A DNA stretch of 64,000 bases from Vicinamibacteria bacterium (GTDB lineage: Bacteria; Acidobacteriota; Vicinamibacteria; Marinacidobacterales; Marinacidobacteraceae), in assembly GCA_964291235.2 (NCBI GenBank), contig OZ219816.1, forward strand, positions 192,001-256,000, in the 5' to 3' direction. The position numbers and the translations under genes are program-made. Of this stretch, positions 3,865-56,933 are shown piece after piece. The notes under the pieces are model-generated. The model ran no database searches, was not told where the DNA came from, and was given only the letters and a program-made list of their open reading frames with translations. Every line of letters starts with the position of its first letter. Positions within the stretch are counted from its first letter, which is position 1.

Positions 3865-4003
3865 GGGGGGAATGCGTGAAAGGGGGGTGTCCCCCCTTTC
3901 ACAAGACGAAAGCGCAAAATCGGAACTCGCCGAAGCGCGCCCCAGGCGCGCGAGGGAGTTTCGATTTCCGGCACGAAGTGCCGGGCGGTCCGGCAGGGGG
4001 GCA
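3865..4003. repeat. ~140-bp structured dispersed element, also at ~61206 and ~61453
   Basis: GTGAAAGGGGGG..CCCCCCTTTCACA..ATCGGAACTCGCCG..GGGAGTTTCGAT..CCGGCACGAAGTGCCG shared among three copies. Confidence 0.8.
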
Positions 4004-4068
4004 CAGGCTTGGTTCGCCTTTGCTACGCCGTGCTCCCCAGCCCTGTGCCCCCCTGCCGGACCGCTCAG

Positions 4069-4140
4069 TGCGCGGTGCAGGATTTGAACCTGCGACCACC
4101 TGCGTGTAAGGCAGGCGCTCTTCCGCTGAGCTAACCGCGC
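4069..4140 (-). tRNA. tRNA-Val(TAC)
   Basis: Reverse complement GCGCGGTTAGCTCAGCGGAAGAGCGCCTGCCTTACACGCAGGTGGTCGCAGGTTCAAATCCTGCACCGCGCA; cloverleaf, TAC anticodon, GTTCAAATCC T-arm; CCA not encoded. Confidence 0.95.
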
Positions 4141-11851: not shown

Positions 11852-12346
11852 ATGCCCCAGTCCGCGCCGCAGCCGCCGAAACCCATTCCCGCACGCGCGG
11901 AGAGCGGCGTCCCGAAATCGACCGATAGCGGCGTCCTCTTCCGTGCCCTGGTGGAAGCCGGAGCGGATCCAGGGCTCGCCTATACTGCTGAAGCAGGAAC
12001 GAAGTCCATGGTTTCCGAAGCGGTAGCCACGCAGGTCCAGCCGATTCTGGTGGAAATGCGCCAGCTCTTCGCCGAGCAGGAGCGGCGCTTCGCCGAGCAG
12101 GATCGGAAGCTGGACGCGCTGGCCGCGAAATATGCCGAGCACGACCGCAAGCTGGATGCGCTGGCCGCGCACGTTGGCGAGCACGACCACAAGCTGGATG
12201 CACTGACCACGGAGGTCCGGCGGACGAACGAGGTCGTGGACGTGAAGCTGGACGGCATCCGGCGGGAGTTGCGGCTGATCTGGGGCGCGCTCGGAATCTC
12301 GCTGACGGTGTGGCTGGTGGTCCTCGGGTACCTGCTCTCGAACTGA
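11852..12346 (+). CDS. Coiled-coil protein with 14-aa repeats (3 units) and C-terminal TM
   Basis: GGAGGAG RBS; AEHDRKLDALAAKY-type repeats; LIWGALGISLTVWLVVLGYLL. Confidence 0.8.
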   Translation: MPQSAPQPPKPIPARAESGVPKSTDSGVLFRALVEAGADPGLAYTAEAGTKSMVSEAVATQVQPILVEMRQLFAEQERRFAEQDRKLDALAAKYAEHDRKLDALAAHVGEHDHKLDALTTEVRRTNEVVDVKLDGIRRELRLIWGALGISLTVWLVVLGYLLSN

Positions 12347-12847: not shown

Positions 12848-13447
12848 ATGCCCCAGTCCGCGCCGCAGCCGCCGCAGCCGATCCCCCCACGTGCGGAGGG
12901 CGGCGTCCCGAAAACGACCGATAGCGGCGTCCTCTTCCGTGCCCTGGTGGAAGCCGGAGCGGATCCAGGGCTCGCCTATACTGCTGAAGCAGGAACGAAG
13001 TCCATGGTTTCCGAAGCGGTAGCCACGCAGGTGCAGCCGATTCTGGTGGAAATGCGCCAGCTCTTCGCCGAGCAGGATCGGAAGCTGGACGCGCTGGCCG
13101 CGAAAGTTGCCGAGCACGGCCTCAAGCTGGACGCGCTGGCCGCGAAATATGCCGAGCACGACCGCAAGCTGGACGCGCTGGCCGCGAAATATGCCGAGCA
13201 CGACCGCAAGCTGGACGCGCTGGCCGCGAAATATGCCGAGCACGACCGCAAGCTGGATGCGCTGGCCGCGCAGGTTGGCGAGCACGACCATAAGCTGGAC
13301 GCACTGACCACGGAGGTCCGGCGGACGAACGAGGTCGTGGACGTGAAGCTGGACGGCATCCGGCGGGAGTTGCGGCTGATCTGGGGCGCGCTCGGAATCT
13401 CGCTGACGGTGTGGCTGGTGGTCCTCGGGTACCTGCTTTCGAACTGA
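12848..13447 (+). CDS. Tandem paralog of 11852-12346 with 6 repeat units
   Basis: Near-identical N- and C-termini; expanded 42-bp tandem repeat. Confidence 0.8.
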   Translation: MPQSAPQPPQPIPPRAEGGVPKTTDSGVLFRALVEAGADPGLAYTAEAGTKSMVSEAVATQVQPILVEMRQLFAEQDRKLDALAAKVAEHGLKLDALAAKYAEHDRKLDALAAKYAEHDRKLDALAAKYAEHDRKLDALAAQVGEHDHKLDALTTEVRRTNEVVDVKLDGIRRELRLIWGALGISLTVWLVVLGYLLSN

Positions 13448-31540: not shown

Positions 31541-31782
31541 GGGTCTCCTCCACTCAGTCGAGTCGGTTACTGATTTCGCAGCCTACGGGCAGCCTTCGAC
31601 CCTGTCAACGGGCGTCACGCCCGCGGACCCCCCGCCACCCCCACGTTGTGCAGGCACGGGAACGCCGACCTCCAGGTCGGCACAGCGGGCCGCAGGCCCG
31701 CGGGCGGCGCATCGCGGCGCACGCCCACGGCGCGCAAAAGTTGCTGTCTCCCAACTGCGCAAAAGGTTCATGTCTCTCGAAC

Positions 31783-32149
31783 AGCTACTAGTTACGGCCC
31801 AGCCGACTCTCCCTCAGCTACTAGTTGCAGCCCGGCGATCCGCCCCGGCTACTAGTAGCAACCCAGCCGAATCCCCTTCAGCTACTAGTTGCAGCCCGAA
31901 AACCCGCCAAAGCTATTAGTTCAGCCCCCAAAAGCCGGCTCCAGCTACTAGTAGCAACCCAGCCGAATCCCCTTCAGCTACTAGTTGCAGCCCGAAAACC
32001 CGCCAGAGCTACTAGTTCAGCCCCCAAAGGCCGGCTCCAGCTACTAGTAGCAACCCAGCCGAATCCCCTTCAGCTACTAGTCGCAGCCCGGCGACCCGCT
32101 CCAGCTACTAGTAGCAATCCAGCCGAATTCCTTTCGGCTACTAGTTGCA
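31783..32149. repeat. Array of 12 palindromic (A/G)GCTACTAGT sites with 31-33 bp period
   Basis: Starts at 31783, 31816, 31847, 31880, 31911 (AGCTATTAGT variant), 31943, 31976, 32007, 32039, 32072, 32103, 32136. Confidence 0.95.
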
Positions 32150-32234
32150 GCCGGCCGACTTCGACTGTCACGAACGACGTAAAGAACTGTAACTCTAAAA
32201 GCCCTATATTGTTTGGCTTACATTCAACCGTCAC

Positions 32235-33256
32235 GTGCCCGCTCCCCTCAGTCTGTTCGACCCGCCAGAAGAGAAGCCACCCGGACTCGACGCCCTCCGC
32301 GCGTGGCTGCGAAAGCCTCGACCACGGCTTCGGGGCGTCTGGCTGTGGGTCCGCTTGGTCCTCTCGGGGATCGCAAAGGGATTTCGGTTCCTCAAGAAGC
32401 ATTGGCCCGCAGCACGCGAGGGGATCCACAAGCTCGCGGTCGAGAGTGAGAAGGTCGCGCGCGGGGCGATCCGGGTCGGCTACGCCGCCGCGACTTCGGC
32501 GGAGGCGTCGTGCGCAGCACGCGAGCCTTGCGAGGGGACGACGGAAAGGTCAGCGGAACCACGGCGAAGGTTCGGCAAGTGGGCCGAGCGGTGCGGGGCT
32601 TCGGCGGCCGGTTGACCGAGGGAGGCGCCGGAGCAGCGGCGGCGCTCTCCAGCCTGGCCCGACTGTTCCCCGCCGCGGGCAAACAGGAAGCGAGCGGACT
32701 CGGCCTGCTGGACCCACCCGAGGACAGCGAGCCCGGACTCCCCGAGCCTCCGCTGCGACCCCACCACAAACCGGCGGAACCGGATCGCCCGGACCGGCCT
32801 TCCAGCCCCGAGGCGCCGCGACCGGCACTCCCGCGGATCCCATCGGAACGACGCTCCGAGCGTCCGGCAGAAACCACGAAACCCGAGACACCGAACGAGC
32901 CACCCGCGGCGGCGGCTCCCAAACAGGACCGAGAAGCCCGCTTCAAGGGTCTCCCGGAGTTGTTCATCCCCGAGGCAGCCGCTACGGATGCTCGGCCCCA
33001 CCCGGAAGCTCTGCGCGTACTGATCCTCGACATCTGCCGTGAGCGCGACTGGACCACTCCGGGCGAGCTCGCGCGCTGGTTCGACATGCACCGGCGCAGC
33101 CTCTCCAACCGCTACATCCGCCCGCTCGTGGAGGCCGGCCTGCTGGAGCGGCGCTATCCGGACCGCCCGAACTCTCCCAAGCAGGCGTACCGGACCCGGC
33201 GCGACACGGCGCCGCCGCATCCCGGCACCGTTCCTCCCGCGGCCGCAAAGAGCTGA
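32235..33256 (+). pseudogene. Apparently frameshifted gene: amphipathic N-terminus, Pro-rich linker, C-terminal Fic/RecG-C-like winged helix
   Basis: ORFs 32235-32615 and 32510-33256 join near 32490; C-terminus ELARWF..HRRSLSNRYIRPLVEAGLLERRYPDRPNSPKQAY. Confidence 0.6.
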
Positions 33257-33425
33257 CGCGCCGACCACGAAGTCCATGCACATCGTCGCCGGGGACCTCG
33301 GCCTCGAACACCTCTGGGTCGTCTATCCGGGGGAGCTGGAGTACCCGCTGGGTGACGGGATCACCGCCCTGCCGCTCGCGAGGGTTGCGGGCCTGCCCCT
33401 GTCGCACCCGGACCAGGCCCGGTGA
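33257..33425 (+). pseudogene. C-terminal remnant of an AAA+/DUF4143 ATP-binding protein
   Basis: DAPTTKSMHIVAGDLGLEHLWVVYPG...LGDGITALPL resembles DUF4143 C-termini; no N-terminal part. Confidence 0.6.
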
Positions 33426-33534: not shown

Positions 33535-34785
33535 CTACAGCACCCGCCACCAGGGCGCGGCGAGCACATCGGACGCGACCCAGGAAACCTCGGTTCCTCC
33601 GTGCAGCAGCAGCCCGGGCCGCGCCATCTCGCCGTACTCTGCCTGGAACACCCGCAAACCCGCGGCGTCCCGGAACCGCGGGGTGGTGGTCGCCTTGACT
33701 TCGATAGGCAGCAGCCGGTCCCCGGCTTCCACTACGAAGTCCACTTCCTCGCCCAGCGTGGTGCGCCAATGGAAGACCTCGGCCCGTCCCCGGCCGGCGG
33801 GCCGGGCATCGCGCCAGGCGAGCAGGTCGCCCAGCACGATGTTCTCCAGATGGGCGCCCGAGGGTTCGCCGCCGCTCAGGTGGAGCGCCAGTCCGCCATC
33901 GCACCAAAAGACCTTCGGCGACTTCATGAGCCGCTTCGTGCGGTTCACGCTGTACGCCGGGACGGGGACGAACAGATACGAAGTCTCCAGGAGGTTGAGC
34001 CACCGCCGCACCGTCGGTTGCGGCAACGCGGCGTCCCGCCCCATCCCGGTGTGGTTGGCGAGCTGACCGAGGCGCAGACTGGCGATGCGCATCAACCGCC
34101 GGAAGTCCGGCAGTGCGGTGATTCGGGCCAGCGCCCTCAAGTCGCGCTCGAGGTAGGTGCGCTCGTACCCCTCGAACCAGTCGGCGCGAGTTTCCGGGTC
34201 GTCGAGGTGGAGCGCCGGGGTCGGAAAGCCTCCGCGCCGCGCCAGGCGACGCCAGTCGGCAGGGCGGTCGGGTTGCGAGGCGACCAGTTCCCGCCATTCG
34301 CCCGCGGCCGTAGCGAGGAGGTCTTCCCAGATGCCGCAGCGCCCGCATCCCTCCGTCTCGCCCCGGGTCATGGGCCAGAGCGCGACGTAGCCGGCGCGCC
34401 CCGCGAGCGATTCCGAGACCTGCCGCATGAGCAGCAGGTCGGCGGAGCCCGTGAGAAGAAATTTCCCCGGCCGCCGGTCCGTGTCCACTGCGCGCTTGAC
34501 TGCGAGCAGCAGATCGGGCGCGCGCTGCACCTCGTCGAGAGTGATCGGTCCGCCGCCCGCGAAAAGTGCCCGCGGGTCGCGTCGTGCGGTGTCGAGAGTG
34601 TCGAAGTCGTCCAGCGACCGGTAGTTCCGCGTCCCGCCCCCGATCTCCTGGGCGAGCGTGCTCTTCCCGGTCTGCCGGGCTCCCGTCAGGACCGCGACGG
34701 GCATGGCGGACAGCACCCGCCGCAGGCGCTCCGCCGCCAGTCGGGGAAGGGATGCACGGTCAGTCATGTGGTGAATGATATTCAT
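33535..34785 (-). CDS. AAA+ ATPase with DUF4143 nuclease-like C-terminus
   Basis: GARQTGKST, LDEVQRAP, LTGS, GGFP, EVDFVVE...IEVK; alternative start 34767. Confidence 0.9.
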   Translation of the reverse strand: MNIIHHMTDRASLPRLAAERLRRVLSAMPVAVLTGARQTGKSTLAQEIGGGTRNYRSLDDFDTLDTARRDPRALFAGGGPITLDEVQRAPDLLLAVKRAVDTDRRPGKFLLTGSADLLLMRQVSESLAGRAGYVALWPMTRGETEGCGRCGIWEDLLATAAGEWRELVASQPDRPADWRRLARRGGFPTPALHLDDPETRADWFEGYERTYLERDLRALARITALPDFRRLMRIASLRLGQLANHTGMGRDAALPQPTVRRWLNLLETSYLFVPVPAYSVNRTKRLMKSPKVFWCDGGLALHLSGGEPSGAHLENIVLGDLLAWRDARPAGRGRAEVFHWRTTLGEEVDFVVEAGDRLLPIEVKATTTPRFRDAAGLRVFQAEYGEMARPGLLLHGGTEVSWVASDVLAAPWWRVL

Positions 34786-38699: not shown

Positions 38700-40106
38700 G
38701 TGAAAACAAGAACATCGGACAGAGGCGAGAATGGCGACCCGAGTGGCCATCGCGCCGCGCTTTTTCCGGCGCTTTCGGAAGGATCGAAGGAAAAGCGTGC
38801 CGTATCGATCCTACTCGCGTGCATGGAACAGGTGCCGGAATTCGCCAAGAGTCTGCTCCACGGGCAGGGGGTTCGATTCGGCAAGAAGAGCAGATTGCAG
38901 GCCTGGACTGAAGTCGGACCGGTCGGCAAGAAGGGTGGGGAGCGGCCGGACGGGAGAATAGAAGTCGAAAGCACACGCGGACAACGGTGGGTCGCCCTGC
39001 TTGAGGCAAAGATCGGCAAGGCCGTGCTGAATGACAGTCAGATCGCGGCCTATCTGGCCGAAAGCCGTTCCGTCCGCGCGAATGCGTTGATCACGATCTC
39101 AAACGAATTCGCAGTCCTCGCGAACCATCACCCGACGTACCGCGGAAAGACTCCCAAAGGCATCGCGCTGCTGCATTGGTCCTGGAGTTCAATCTTGACA
39201 AAGTGCCGTCTTCTGACGGACGGCGGCGAGATTGAGGATCGCGACCACCGCTGGGTCATCGCGCACCTAGTTCGGTTCCTCAGTCACCCGAGCACCGGCG
39301 TTGTCCGCTTCGACCGGATGCCGTCGAGCTGGAAGGAAACCGCCCGAGCAGTCTCCGCCGGCGCCGGAGTCAGGAAAGGCAGCGACGCAGCCCTGGAGGT
39401 CGCGGCGGGCTGGACCCAAGAAGCCCGGGACCTCGGACTGCAACTCACCCGTCTCCTTAAGCAGCCAGTACCCGTGAAGCTCAGCCGCCTGGAACGCGAA
39501 GATCCAAGGGCATTCATGAACCGGGTGTTGGACGGACTCTGCAACAACCAGGTGCTGGAGGTGGAATACCTGATTCCCGACGGTGTGTCAGGGCTTACCG
39601 TCCGGGCGGATCTCAGAGCTAAGACCCTCACGACCAGCATGACGGTGGGGGCCCCGGAAGACCGCAAGACCGCCAAGGCGCGTGTCAATTGGCTGCTGCG
39701 TCAACTCGTCAAGACAGAAGAAGAAGAGAGTGTCCACGTCAAAGCCGTCTACGGGCGAAGGGAGGACATCCAGCACTCACTGGCCGCGGTGCGGGAGAAC
39801 CCGGAGGCAATAACCAAGGATGATGTGAAGATTTGCCCGAGAAGGTTCGAGGTGAAACTGATCGGTGAACTCGGGCGAAAGATGGAGAGCCCAAAGTCCT
39901 TCATTCAGGCGCTCGAGAAACACGTCCCCGACTTCTACACGGAAGTGGGGCAGCACCTGCGACCTTGGGTGCCCAGCGCGCCAAGGGTCGCCTCTGAGCC
40001 CAAACAGGCTGCAGAGAAGCAGGGAGGGACTGAGGCTGCGACTTCGAAGCCCGAAGACACGGACACAGGAAGGGCTGGAATGGACGAGCAACAGCCTCAT
40101 CCCTAG
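38700..40106 (+). CDS. Hypothetical protein with PD-(D/E)XK-like motif
   Basis: RPDGRIEV...LLEAKIG; 468 aa. Confidence 0.7.
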   Translation: MKTRTSDRGENGDPSGHRAALFPALSEGSKEKRAVSILLACMEQVPEFAKSLLHGQGVRFGKKSRLQAWTEVGPVGKKGGERPDGRIEVESTRGQRWVALLEAKIGKAVLNDSQIAAYLAESRSVRANALITISNEFAVLANHHPTYRGKTPKGIALLHWSWSSILTKCRLLTDGGEIEDRDHRWVIAHLVRFLSHPSTGVVRFDRMPSSWKETARAVSAGAGVRKGSDAALEVAAGWTQEARDLGLQLTRLLKQPVPVKLSRLEREDPRAFMNRVLDGLCNNQVLEVEYLIPDGVSGLTVRADLRAKTLTTSMTVGAPEDRKTAKARVNWLLRQLVKTEEEESVHVKAVYGRREDIQHSLAAVRENPEAITKDDVKICPRRFEVKLIGELGRKMESPKSFIQALEKHVPDFYTEVGQHLRPWVPSAPRVASEPKQAAEKQGGTEAATSKPEDTDTGRAGMDEQQPHP

Positions 40107-41121: not shown

Positions 41122-42300
41122 ATGATGGAACGACCTTACCGACTCTCCGCACGCTTCGTCGCCACCATTGAGCAGCCCGGACGCTACGGCGACGGCCGCG
41201 GCTCCGGCGGCCTCTCACTCCTCGTCAAGCATACGACCCGAGGGCACCTGGCCAAGTCCTGGGCGCAGCGCATCAGCGTGGACGGCCGCCAGCGCAATCT
41301 CGGACTGGGGTCCTGGCCCCACGTCAGCTTGGCCGAGGCCCGCGAGAAGTGCGCCCTGAATCTCGCCGCCCGGCGGCGCGGGGAGCTGGTGACCGGCCGC
41401 AAGCGGACGGTCCCCACCTTCGAGGAAGCCGTCGAGAAGGTGATCGCGGTGCACCGGGCAGGCTGGAAGGACGGCGGGAGGCAGGAGAAGCTGGTGCGGG
41501 CGAGCCTCCGGGACCACGCCATGCCGAAGCTCGGCGGGAGGCCGGTGGACCGGATCAACACGTCGGACGTGATGGCGGTGCTGCTGCCCATCTGGAATGA
41601 GAAGCGGGTGACGGCGCGTCGCGTTCGCCAGCGGATCGGGGCGGTGATGCGGTGGGCGGTGGCGCAGGGCTACCGGGAGGACAACCCGGCGGGGGAGGCC
41701 ATCGGGGCGGCGCTGCCCAGGAATGGCTTCCGGCCGCAGCACCACCGGGCGCTCCCGTACGCGGAGGTTGCCGGTGCCATCGAGAAGGTGCGGGGATCGG
41801 GGGCCTATCCCGCGACCGTGTTGGCGTTCGAGTTCCTGGTGCTGACGGCGTGCCGGAGCGGGGAGGTGCGCGGCGCGCTGTGGGAGGAGATGGACCTTGA
41901 GCGGCAGGAGTGGCGGATTCCGCCGGAGCGGATGAAGACAGGACGGGAGCACCGGGTTCCGCTGTCCGGGCGGGCGCTGGCGGTGGTTCGGGAGGCGCGG
42001 AGACTCGCGGACGGCTCGGGACTGGTGTTCCCATCGGCGCGTGGCGGCCCGCTGTCCGAGGTGGCGATCCCGAAGATGGTCCGGGATCTGGAGATCGCGG
42101 CGGTGCCTCACGGGTTCCGGTCGAGCTTCCGTGACTGGGCGGCGGAGTGTTCCGACGCCCCGCGGGAGGTTTGCGAACTGGCGCTGGCGCACGTGAACAC
42201 GAACAGCATCGAGGCGGCCTACCGGCGGACCGACATGTTCGAGCGGCGGCGGTCGCTCATGGAGCAGTGGTCCGCGTTCCTGGCCGGGACGAGTTGCTAG
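41122..42300 (+). CDS. Tyrosine integrase, P4-like with Arm DNA-binding domain
   Basis: GLSLLV..LG.WP.VSLAEAR; LTACRSGE, MKTGREH, HGFRSSFRDW, LAH, AY.R catalytic set. Confidence 0.95.
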   Translation: MMERPYRLSARFVATIEQPGRYGDGRGSGGLSLLVKHTTRGHLAKSWAQRISVDGRQRNLGLGSWPHVSLAEAREKCALNLAARRRGELVTGRKRTVPTFEEAVEKVIAVHRAGWKDGGRQEKLVRASLRDHAMPKLGGRPVDRINTSDVMAVLLPIWNEKRVTARRVRQRIGAVMRWAVAQGYREDNPAGEAIGAALPRNGFRPQHHRALPYAEVAGAIEKVRGSGAYPATVLAFEFLVLTACRSGEVRGALWEEMDLERQEWRIPPERMKTGREHRVPLSGRALAVVREARRLADGSGLVFPSARGGPLSEVAIPKMVRDLEIAAVPHGFRSSFRDWAAECSDAPREVCELALAHVNTNSIEAAYRRTDMFERRRSLMEQWSAFLAGTSC

Positions 42301-44425: not shown

Positions 44426-45977
44426 GTTCCTCCGTCACGGCGGCGGCTCGGCCCGGGCGGCGGCCGACTATCTCGTCGGCGAACGGGACTCCGCCGGACG
44501 GGTGCGTCCGGGCGTCGAGGTTCTGCGCGGTGAACCGGACCACGTTGCCGCGGTCGCCGACTCGCTGGAGTTCGGCCGCGGGTACACCTCCGCCGTGATC
44601 TCGTGGGCGCCGGAGGACCGGCCCACCGACGAGCAGATCGGGGCCGTCCTCGACGAGTTCGAGAAGACGGCCTGGGCGGGACTGGAGCCGGACCGCTACG
44701 CCTGGACGGCGGTCCTGCACCGCGAGCACGGGGACGGGGTCCACGTGCACGTCCTCACCGCCCGCTGCGACCTGGAGACAGGCCGCAGCCTGAACATCGC
44801 GCCGCCCGGCTGGCAGAAGACGTTCGATCCACTGCGCGACGCCTTCAACCACCAGCACGGCTGGAGCCGCCCCGACGACCCGGCGCGCGCCCGGGCGCAC
44901 CAGCCCGGCCATCGCGCCTACATCGAGGCGGCGAAGCTGCGGGCCGGCCTCGAGCACGAAGCCGGCCCTCGCGAGTTGATCCGTGACTACCTGCTGCAGC
45001 GGGTCGAGCACGGCGCGGTGCGGAACCGCGCCGACGTGGTCGCCTCCCTGAAGGAGGCCGGCTTCGAGGTGCCCCGCCAGGGCAAGGACTACCTGACCGC
45101 CCGCGATCCGGACAGCGGGACGCGGTTCCGGCTGAAAGGAGCGCTGTATGAGCACAACTTCGAACCCGAACGACTTGAGCGCCCGCGTGAAGAGCCGGAT
45201 GGAAGCCGACCGCCGGCAGATCGAGGCGGCGACGACGAGCGAGGTGCGGCAGCTTGGCGCGAACTTGCGCGCCGTCGTGAGCGACGAGCTGCGTACCATC
45301 GAAGCCGATACGGGGGCGACGGTCGCACGGGTGCGGTGGATGCTGGTGAACGCGTGGCTGCGGCCCCTGGTGGCCGGCCTGGTCCTATTCCTCGGGATCA
45401 GTGGCGGGAGCTGGGGGCTGATGCAATGGCTGTCGGTGAGCATCCAGAGCCAGATCGAAACCCTGGCGGTGCTGGAAGTGCGGATCGACCAGGCGCGCGA
45501 GACGCTGGCCGAAATCGAGGACACGACGTGGGGGGTGACGCTGCGGGAGCTCGACGGGGAGCGGTTCGTGGTGCTGGCGGACGGGACGCTGGCCAATCCG
45601 CACTGGACCGTGGGCGGGCGGCCTGCCTTGAAGCTCTTGAGCGAGTGAGGGAGTTGTATGAGCGAGCTAGAGGGACAGTCGACAGTCGCCTTCGAGAGGC
45701 TGTGCGCGCATTTCGAGCTGGGGCAGCGGCGGCAAGCCGAGCAGATCGAGGCCTTGCAGCAGCAAGTCGAGCGGCTGAGCGCGGAGAACGAAGCCTTGCG
45801 GCAGCGAACCGAGCGGCAGGACGCCGAGAGCGCAATCTGGCGGCAGCAGTTCGAGCGGCTCGACGGGCAGGTGACCGGCTTGGCCCAGGACTACAGGAGG
45901 CTCGCCGGGACGTTGCGCGGGCAGTGGAGGTGATGCGGCGGCGCGGACGTACGCGGGATCATGGTCTGGGCCGCTGA
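44415..45977 (+). CDS. mobA: MOBP relaxase (MbeA-like)
   Basis: AADYL, YTSAVISWA, LHREHGDGVHVH, GRSLNIAPPG. Confidence 0.88.
   Translation: MHIKFLRHGGGSARAAADYLVGERDSAGRVRPGVEVLRGEPDHVAAVADSLEFGRGYTSAVISWAPEDRPTDEQIGAVLDEFEKTAWAGLEPDRYAWTAVLHREHGDGVHVHVLTARCDLETGRSLNIAPPGWQKTFDPLRDAFNHQHGWSRPDDPARARAHQPGHRAYIEAAKLRAGLEHEAGPRELIRDYLLQRVEHGAVRNRADVVASLKEAGFEVPRQGKDYLTARDPDSGTRFRLKGALYEHNFEPERLERPREEPDGSRPPADRGGDDERGAAAWRELARRRERRAAYHRSRYGGDGRTGAVDAGERVAAAPGGRPGPIPRDQWRELGADAMAVGEHPEPDRNPGGAGSADRPGARDAGRNRGHDVGGDAAGARRGAVRGAGGRDAGQSALDRGRAACLEALERVRELYERARGTVDSRLREAVRAFRAGAAAASRADRGLAAASRAAERGERSLAAANRAAGRRERNLAAAVRAARRAGDRLGPGLQEARRDVARAVEVMRRRGRTRDHGLGR
45148..45648 (+). CDS. MbeB-like protein nested in the relaxase gene
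   Basis: Alternate frame inside mobA; coiled N-terminus plus central TM, as in ColE1 mbeB; AAGGAG upstream. Confidence 0.6.
   Translation: MSTTSNPNDLSARVKSRMEADRRQIEAATTSEVRQLGANLRAVVSDELRTIEADTGATVARVRWMLVNAWLRPLVAGLVLFLGISGGSWGLMQWLSVSIQSQIETLAVLEVRIDQARETLAEIEDTTWGVTLRELDGERFVVLADGTLANPHWTVGGRPALKLLSE
45658..45933 (+). CDS. MbeD/MobD-like coiled-coil protein nested in the relaxase gene
   Basis: MSELE...AFERL; GGGAG RBS; ColE1 mbeD position. Confidence 0.65.
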   Translation: MSELEGQSTVAFERLCAHFELGQRRQAEQIEALQQQVERLSAENEALRQRTERQDAESAIWRQQFERLDGQVTGLAQDYRRLAGTLRGQWR

Positions 45978-56555: not shown

Positions 56556-56933
56556 ATGAGCGGCGGAGAAGTAGCGCAACTCCAAGGCGCTGGGGAGCGT
56601 TCCGGCGATCCGCTCACGCGCGCCGACCGGATCATGGTCACCATGCTCGCGGCCCTGCTCGGCGGCACGATCGTCGGGTTCGTGGCGATCGGCGGTCAAC
56701 TCGTGGGGCTCCAGCGCCAGATCGGCGATCTGCGCGCGGAGATGCACCGGGAGATCGGCGAGGTCGCTGACCGGATTACCCGTGTCGAAACCCGGCTCAC
56801 CGGTGTCGAAACCCGGCTCACCGGTGTCGAAACCCGGCTCACCGGTGTCGAAACCCGGCTCACCCGCGTCGAAACGCAGATCGAGACTCGCCTCGTCCCG
56901 GCGTCTGACTCCGGCGACCCGGCCGGCCCCTGA
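56556..56933 (+). CDS. N-terminally anchored coiled-coil protein with 21-bp tandem repeat (VETRLTG)
   Basis: TM then about 4.5 near-perfect 21-bp units at 56781-56877. Confidence 0.7.
   Translation: MSGGEVAQLQGAGERSGDPLTRADRIMVTMLAALLGGTIVGFVAIGGQLVGLQRQIGDLRAEMHREIGEVADRITRVETRLTGVETRLTGVETRLTGVETRLTRVETQIETRLVPASDSGDPAGP

Follow-up and report, generated by a model that had tools for sequence, protein, structure and literature searches.

Phased direct repeats that lie beside an AT-rich tract and a gene for a winged-helix protein are characteristic of iteron-type plasmid origins, and in the type III toxin–antitoxin systems (viz. ToxIN, CptIN, and TenpIN) a ToxN-type ribonuclease gene stands after a terminator and is preceded by near-identical structured RNA repeats. 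The REP and BIME elements associated with RAYT proteins are built of GC-rich hairpin palindromes. The Par system of plasmid pSK1 reportedly achieves partition with a single protein, and RocS, which has a DNA-binding domain and an amphipathic helix, is presumably a tether between DNA and membrane and may be likened to the protein described below. Non-coding tandem repeats of constant length and drifting sequence (20–21 and 52 nt, with short conserved words) have been described in bacteria by Subirana and Messeguer, who, in the part of the article available to us, suggest a polymerising protein that recognises these words and name none (PMC8161180). In the accessible sections of the report on plasmid R388, the stbS site is a set of helically phased direct repeats with an 11-bp cycle, located upstream of the gene for the HTH-type protein StbA, which has no NTPase partner (bioRxiv 10.1101/2022.04.29.490116).

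In the present work, we have analysed a stretch of 64,000 nucleotides (the window) that corresponds to positions 192001–256000 of contig C2 of the present genome (G000; 3.45 Mb in the two contigs C1 and C2), a member of the marine genus Candidatus Marinacidobacterium (Acidobacteriota, Vicinamibacteria), which we take to be a genus of sponge habitats. Our analyses have identified in this window a non-coding array of 12 units (31782–32152, + strand; period 31–33 bp, mean 32.1) that is non-random and, judged from its sequence, part of an undescribed module of predicted function. Its 9-base cores start at positions 31784, 31817, 31848, 31881, 31912, 31944, 31977, 32008, 32040, 32073, 32104, and 32137, span 31784–32145, and lie within a 13-bp frame that is shared with the arrays of paralogs. 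When recomputed from these positions, the number of cores and all 11 spacings (33, 31, 33, 31, 32, 33, 31, 32, 33, 31, and 33 bp) agree with the original prediction of sites about three helical turns apart. Eleven of the 12 cores are perfect and one carries a single change; matches to the core in the whole window with at most one mismatch, on both strands, number 22 against 1.63 expected, a count that none of 100 shuffles reached. The central hexamer occurs 29 times in the genome, 11 of them in this array, and the central tetramer, CTAG, is depleted genome-wide as had been supposed (observed/expected 0.25). Conservation reaches 11–12 of 12 units in the core columns and 5–12 of 12 in the linker columns, where a short C-run is likewise conserved. 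Alignment of the units bears out the three recurring classes of linker in the order claimed, together with 96-bp block duplications, and the higher-order blocks of 64 and 96 bp indicate slippage-type growth.

Several explanations of the array were considered and dropped. A 405-aa frame that runs over it has only a sub-threshold Pfam match and is broken by the 31/32/33 spacing, and a coding repeat was rejected. A miniature TA-flanked element was abandoned after other cores turned out to be non-palindromic; the palindromy stressed in the original prediction is not supported as the key feature, because the cores of most paralogs are asymmetric direct repeats, and it is incidental in the window array. 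Unlike a CRISPR array, the linkers here recur in three classes rather than being unique spacers and the constant part is only 9–13 bases long; a Pfam scan of the 9 ORFs around the array found no cas gene, nor any rep or parAB gene, as previously noted. A chromosomal origin is also rejected, since dnaA lies on the other contig (C1:941 kb) and there is no skew switch at the array. The cumulative GC skew of C2 turns near 500 kb and 1,350 kb although dnaA is on C1, which suggests an inversion or misjoin. Elsewhere in the window, tandem repeats of 21 or 42 bp (1597–1696, 12092–12205, 13067–13306, 45743–45860, and 56771–56875) have in-frame lengths and likely encode coiled-coil heptads in small proteins.

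The upstream boundary of the array, previously placed at 31730, has been revised to 31782. The preceding positions 31732–31781 (+ strand) are a degraded right end of an insertion sequence of the IS21 family (49 bases at 86% identity with the terminus of a complete istA/istB element of 2,493 bp), a passenger that directly adjoins the first unit and is not part of the array, and positions ~31653–31710 are a separate REP-like high-copy repeat with well over 100 genome matches. A conserved "leader" 5' of the array, entertained at one stage, was shown to be this IS21 end. The order of REP-like repeat, IS21 end, and array is also found, with other cores, at C1:278 kb and C1:440 kb. On the downstream side, the AT-rich tract at 32180–32226 (+ strand) is present in the sequence as claimed, and related tracts separate array and gene at most of the loci where a gene is linked, irrespective of the core, but are found at none of the genes that lack an array. 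The tract likely holds the promoter of the downstream gene; its region contains no sigma-70 consensus.

The gene that follows (32235–33256, + strand), referred to here as the reader gene, was predicted to end in a winged helix, and this part of the prediction stands, while the gene itself is split by a frameshift near 32505. The 5' part (32235–32615, + strand) encodes a Trp-rich amphipathic helix and the start of the heptad helices; its residues 1–85 match homologs in frame at 65–80% identity, and it leaves the homologous frame near the frameshift, where four DNA runs of one study (possibly the source of the assembly) show no indel relative to the assembly. The 3' part (32510–33256, + strand) encodes the second heptad helix, a Pro-rich linker, and a Fic-like_C winged helix (PF21247, E 7.7e-9), within which the predicted recognition helix (33086–33130, + strand) corresponds to helix 285–298 of the ortholog model and has residues that covary with the array core across paralogs. 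This model, of the intact ortholog L090, predicts long N-terminal helices (at low confidence, the mean pLDDT of this part being 63), a Pro-rich linker without order, and, with confidence, a winged helix; in fold, the C-terminal domain comes nearest to that of a Fic protein (PDB 4rgl, E 0.024), likewise a winged helix. In Pfam and NCBIfam, the protein matches only Fic-like_C and, weakly, HTH_20, with no Rep family, ATPase, Fic, ToxN, Cas, or nuclease domain, and neither PADLOC nor NCBIfam assigns a family to it as a whole. Its C-terminal domain is thus a member of the same family as those of Fic and Schlafen/RecG-like proteins, but unlike these proteins it has no Fic or ATPase domain and is fused to a lineage-specific helical N-terminal region.

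The N-terminal region has only 59 matches at E 1e-10 among 1.84 billion representative sequences. Of the 54 matches that were inspected, 30 have the same winged helix, and the others are fragments, shifted frames, or long repeat proteins; weak profile matches to long proteins were mostly of the tape-measure type (4 of 10 scanned) and were set aside as compositional, and the ESM Atlas returned no usable match. In 48 copies, the first 140 residues carry a net charge of +6 to +21 and a high hydrophobic moment without any transmembrane stretch. The Trp-rich helix has a period of 100 degrees, of the surface-helix type, and the next two helices a heptad period of 103 degrees. Of 70 reader copies, 53 are intact and 9, including that of the window, are broken; purifying selection acts on both end domains in most of the 8 pairs compared (dN/dS 0.09–0.54 for the C domain and 0.16–0.97 for the N domain). 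As in RicO, in the available part of its description (bioRxiv 10.64898/2026.03.06.710092), a DNA-binding domain and an amphipathic helix are predicted here in one small protein. Unlike both RicO and RocS, the order of the domains is reversed, the sites form long, scattered tandem arrays rather than origin-proximal single motifs, and the distribution is that of a patchy accessory trait; no test of homology was positive. The helix properties suggest that the Trp-rich cationic amphipathic helix would bind the inner membrane surface and may hold the DNA there, a tethering step that, on model evidence, we regard as tentative and somewhat less probable than its absence.

Genes of this family are present in 15/15 other genomes of the genus and 21/27 of the family, and in 0/27 others of the order, with up to 9 matches per genome and several paralogs in each. 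Their linkage to arrays was counted over 70 winged-helix copies, with 12 further regions containing partial copies (including those of G015 and G006) outside the count. Homologs do possess arrays, which answers a check proposed with the original prediction: an array with a period of 29–35 bp lies at most 700 bp upstream, in fixed orientation, in 44 of the 70 copies. The other 26 copies comprise 5 in which the cognate sites are otherwise placed (one site alone, sites 715 bp away, or spacings of 21 and 33 bp mixed), 2 at contig ends, 3 damaged, 2 with nothing, and 14 basal. Two of the three damaged loci have been invaded by arrays of other types, and the third lies ~12 kb away from its own array. 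The 14 copies, which belong to basal clades, lack both the array and the AT-rich tract, and the protein can therefore exist without arrays. One candidate, L159, was excluded from the array-bearing loci because its periodicity is that of a coding repeat.

Co-occurrence was also observed at the level of genomes, where the counts come from related genomes and are not independent. The two-core pattern of the window array is found in 8/16 genomes of the genus and 0/25 other relatives; six of the eight have a typed matching gene (3 intact), one has a relic without the helix, and one has a gene that is untyped. Arrays of the L151 type occur in 6/28 genomes, 5 of them with a matching gene, and those of the L118 type in 7/28, again with a matching gene in 5. 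Among the loci examined, no matching gene was found in an array-negative genome.

All of the cores, read by hand from majority units as 13 bases in gene orientation, fit one 13-bp frame, in which three positions hardly change and the middle varies. Over the 41 helix/core types, one base prevails at each of frame positions 1, 4, and 11 (in 37, 39, and 39 types, respectively), and positions 5–10 vary. Cores are specific to clades of the protein, as linkage by itself would lead one to expect, and we therefore tested for an additional signal from the helix. In 22 phylogenetically disjoint pairs (44 genes), change in the core follows change in the recognition helix once the rest of the domain is accounted for (partial r 0.50, p 0.017). 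With the roles of helix and remaining domain exchanged, the correlation is weaker (0.36, p 0.10), and windows on the recognition helix rank first of 89, with the wing next. The covariation of motif and recognition helix that had been proposed as a check is thus seen beyond ancestry. Taken over all pairs, which are interdependent, the rest of the domain follows the core no less closely than the helix does (partial 0.27 vs. 0.18), and much of the pairing is therefore plain co-inheritance of linked DNA.

Among close pairs, those whose cores differ have 3.7 of 11 helix positions changed, and those with a common core, at equal backbone distance, 1.25 of 11 (13 and 28 pairs, respectively, which are not independent). 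The clearest case is that of L111/L112 and L117/L130, which are 13–16% apart outside the helix and differ at 6 of 11 positions inside it, the core having shifted to the form of distant acidic-residue clades. His at helix position 2 accompanies C at base 5 in 20/21 types and other residues accompany A in 18/20, a rule for which there are only two independent contrasts (sign test p 0.5). In a single pair within the His clade, both the helix residue and the base have changed. A point against a reading by this helix is that the L151-type core is shared by different helices. At the Nramp-adjacent and RecQ-adjacent sites, different core/helix pairs are found in different species (the Nramp neighbour of L090 was recognised by eye).

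It is quite probable that the cores are binding sites for the reader proteins in some role. Since each array type precedes its own reader, with the helix changing along with the core word, the array is likely to be a docking platform for the winged-helix protein encoded just downstream, a reading to which we would give about an even chance. One reading head would occupy each core along one face of the DNA, the recognition helix would read the variable part of the 13-bp frame, and the two heptad helices would oligomerise neighbouring copies, which would account for the spacing at whole turns. An occupied gene-linked array would repress the gene's own promoter. Cooperative binding and autoregulation, as in StbA and pSK1 Par, would fit here, and the phased direct repeats upstream of an HTH protein gene without an NTPase are a further likeness to these systems. 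Unlike them, the present system is chromosomal, with no plasmid homolog, its DNA-binding domain is C-terminal and of the Fic-like_C type, with no homology to StbA or Par in Pfam or NCBIfam, and it has several orthogonal paralogs per genome as well as gene-less arrays. The cycle of 32 bp also differs from the 11 bp of stbS, as given in the available part of that report (bioRxiv 10.1101/2022.04.29.490116). The undescribed nucleoprotein platform of the original prediction has thus come through the refuting conditions set with it that were examined here, since arrays do stand before homologs and core and predicted recognition helix vary together. The original prediction overlooked that the gene at this locus is broken, that the 5' flank is an IS21 end, and that arrays also occur far from such genes. 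With its reader gene frameshifted, the array of the window may have been left without a reader, or the shorter 3' frame may be all that serves it.

The spacing of the sites is highly regular. Of 823 intervals, 93% measure 31–33 bp, and a 33-bp interval is usually followed by one of 30 or 31 bp; this alternation of long and short intervals has a lag-1 autocorrelation of -0.64 (mean of shuffles -0.07, minimum -0.30), part of which duplication of dimer units alone could produce. Among 189 intervals from 13 loci that were selected for short spacings, 171 measure 19–22, 31–33, or 53–54 bp and none 25–28 bp, with 8 off-phase intervals of 13–14 bp in two of these loci. Spacings of 19–22 and 53–54 bp often alternate with those of 32–33 bp within one array, giving a mixture of two- and three-turn intervals. 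The spacings thus equal 2, 3, or 5 helical turns, a restriction to whole turns that is indicative of proteins on one side of the double helix and not of RNA. At L131 (1380–1600), a 32-bp unit contains two different 13-bp words 16 bp apart, and may be derived from a doubled half-unit.

A processed repeat RNA, either type III antitoxin-like or guide-like, had been offered as an alternative, and the upstream position of the array, its fixed orientation, and the folding of its RNA, far better than that of shuffles (z -7.5), are in its favour. For six arrays with other cores, however, folding does not exceed that of shuffles (z -1.3 to +1.7), and for one it does so only slightly (z -2.3), so that strong folding is confined to arrays with palindromic cores. 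There is no terminator between array and reader gene, no Rfam match for the array, and no ToxN-type gene or Cas or nuclease domain, all unlike type III toxin–antitoxin systems, and the spacing follows the DNA helix. This explanation is hardly credible. The arrays also differ from REP and BIME elements in that most cores are asymmetric and most of the other-core arrays tested fold no better than shuffles.

Arrays are not restricted to the neighbourhood of reader genes. The number of matches ranges from a few to >250 per genome, and arrays reach about 50 units. Window-type arrays occupy several unrelated intergenic places, only some of which precede a reader gene. The present genome contains nine arrays: that of the window, three of the type of the paralog at C1:437 kb, three L118-type arrays (one of them degenerate), and two that belong to a further type. 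No matching gene was found in this genome for the L118-type and further-type arrays, and most of the arrays have no such gene nearby. The nine are spread over both contigs, about evenly split in orientation relative to replication, without clustering at the origin; unlike those of RicO, RocS, and Noc, the sites are therefore not confined to the origin region. Three peculiarities of array structure were also seen: a HicAB-like toxin–antitoxin pair (by eye) between parts of the 41-unit array before the paralog on C1 (C1:438271–440071 in the present genome, outside the window), an array at L123 interrupted by a small coiled-coil ORF, and two core types joined head to tail over >2.5 kb in G013 (C4:975846–978422).

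Alternatively, the sites could be real binding sites that are selected only because they let the reader gene repress itself; arrays that are long or scattered would then be neutral minisatellite expansions, spread by IS21 and recombination and without a structural role. That some genes have only 1–3 sites beside them (L164, L167, and L168), that copy number varies so widely, and that the 64- and 96-bp blocks resemble slippage are consistent with such a runaway operator. So are three-copy repeats of 32–33 bp directly before AAA_14/DUF4143 genes in unrelated phyla, which look like simple operators. Against it, gene-less arrays keep their core and phase while their linkers drift, also at orthologous sites of different species (the AroM site, G001 and G013), two- and three-turn spacings alternate in one array, and the conserved N-terminal helices exceed what a repressor needs. 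On balance we hold this account to be unlikely. The docking platform may alternatively be extended to a programmable chromosome-organising code, in which orthogonal satellite/reader pairs would polymerise on their own arrays and pin loci to the membrane, and a change of a few residues in one helix would switch the specificity; this larger proposal, drawn from the sequence patterns above, is possible but rather doubtful. On the docking-platform reading, the arrays would grow by slippage and block duplication and be split and moved by IS21 and recombination.

The neighbours of arrays and reader genes are mostly housekeeping genes, and the module is not accompanied by any shared cargo. In the window, an AAA_14/DUF4143 gene (33535–34785, - strand) that matches the PADLOC candidate defence system PDC-S01 (E 3.6e-108) is convergent on the reader gene; a gene of this kind also adjoins damaged reader copies in G001 and G013, and Schlafen-HATPase and PIN genes adjoin some reader loci. 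Between reader gene and AAA_14/DUF4143 gene, a short frame (33258–33425, + strand) that is conserved at many sites in the genus resembles by eye the tail of a DUF4143 protein, with no Pfam or NCBIfam match. Further along the window are a 468-aa ORF in a stretch of lower GC (38700–40106, + strand; no Pfam, PADLOC, or NCBIfam match) and, after it, a P4-type integrase (41122–42300, + strand).

The frequency of such defence-type neighbours, the membrane-active-looking helices, and the presence of several orthogonal paralogs per genome that are frequently inactivated could be accounted for by a titration or addiction module. The cationic amphipathic N-terminal region would then be a membrane-active toxin against the cell itself that is harmless while bound to the array, loss or degradation of the DNA (e.g. 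by phage) would free it, and orthogonal paralogs would pile up as selfish or defensive units. The protein has no PADLOC or NCBIfam match, though, 14 copies have no adjoining array, and defence-type genes are presumably common in these variable regions anyway. We consider a module of this kind improbable.

The association of arrays with IS21 elements was observed repeatedly. A full 2,493-bp IS21 element (istA, istB) is inserted inside another array with a 5-bp target duplication. By a strict test in ten genomes, 21 of 42 IS21 right ends abut arrays, compared with 5 of 2000 random sites and 0 of 68 REP flanks; the proportion is 13 of 15 in G001, and all 5 of the end relics in the present genome do so. 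The junctions are found in both orientations and at ≥7 core types, and an IS630 sits inside one window-type array. Ends resembling other IS21-type elements also abut arrays at L122, L125, and L191. In the accessible part of the work on IstB, this protein bends its target DNA and selects it by structure or shape (PMC11208146), and the enrichment at arrays would therefore fit a bent or coated array. IS21 would select such DNA, and half-arrays with an end relic are likely to have been carried to new sites by IS21-driven rearrangement.

These same figures raise the prospect of a transposon decoy, i.e. an array selected to soak up insertion sequences in harmless DNA, which the protein bends into a favoured IS21 target. 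A decoy has no need of a paralog-specific code, however; no fixed phase of insertion within the unit was found (24 sites, R 0.05), half of the IS21 ends lie elsewhere, and the preference could be a by-product of any bent nucleoprotein. We judge it very improbable that the arrays exist for this purpose.

A leftover origin or centromere, one per incompatibility group of an integrated plasmid, was likewise evaluated. The order of sites, AT-rich tract, and winged-helix gene, along with the diversified specificity, recalls iteron origins and centromeres, and some arrays are located beside integrases (L087). A broader scan of GTDB genomes also yielded a RepA_C gene at L052, followed after 81 bp by iteron-like 32-bp repeats (4000–4071). 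Unlike an iteron origin, the present system has no Rep family match and no plasmid homolog, its arrays comprise up to about 50 units, and many of them have no gene. A search of 72,556 plasmids found no homolog of the N-terminal region, with one weak winged-helix match only, and the protein was absent from the viral contigs searched, on which grounds a phage or plasmid origin was rejected. The absence of shared cargo among mostly housekeeping neighbours and the purifying selection on the genes are further points against a relic, which we regard as highly improbable.

The same GTDB scan provides a view of similar repeats in other bacteria. It returned 61 loci, 7 of which are arrays of Candidatus Marinacidobacterium, the others being unrelated repeats. 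At 11 of the loci (L028, L029, L031, L034, L037, L038, L045, L047, L051, L058, and L073), in Bacteroidota and one actinomycete, 3–4 copies of a 32–33-bp repeat stand 8–56 bp before AAA_14/DUF4143-type genes, an assignment confirmed for 7/7 genes scanned, and these repeats are possibly phased operators of this large uncharacterised family. At L032 and L067, short-word repeats flank genes for four-helix-bundle 23S_rRNA_IVP proteins, and L036, L040, L049, L059, and L075 share this style of repeat.

Our literature search, which covered few of the subscription papers, found no description of the array/reader pairing or of IS21 together with tandem repeats and a winged helix, no paper on sponge-symbiont Acidobacteria with tandem repeat arrays, and none since 2020 on a constant repeat size with a DNA-binding protein; PF21247 was named in no paper found. 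A match is provided by the repeats of Subirana and Messeguer, which, in what is accessible of that article, are like the present arrays in being non-coding and lineage-specific and in having a fixed unit length near whole helical turns, a drifting sequence, and short conserved words (PMC8161180). Unlike in those repeats as there described, the main period here is 32 bp (three turns), with 20–21 bp a minority, and a linked candidate protein covaries with the arrays (PMC8161180).

Repeats of constant length have so far been unexplained, a polymerising DNA-binding protein having been proposed but, in the available text, left unnamed (PMC8161180), and the arrays of Candidatus Marinacidobacterium now offer a linked candidate. 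They also constitute a natural series of matched variants of site and helix. The preference of IS21 for these arrays would provide a strong natural case of an element choosing its targets by DNA architecture. If the docking platform is real, the Fic-like_C winged helix would gain a function and a rule for its specificity. If the larger proposal of a chromosome-organising code holds, the reader would be the first named for constant-length bacterial repeats, about twenty 13-bp sites would have reading heads to match, and the arrays with their readers would correspond, in bacteria, to satellite DNA and the binding proteins that co-evolve with it.
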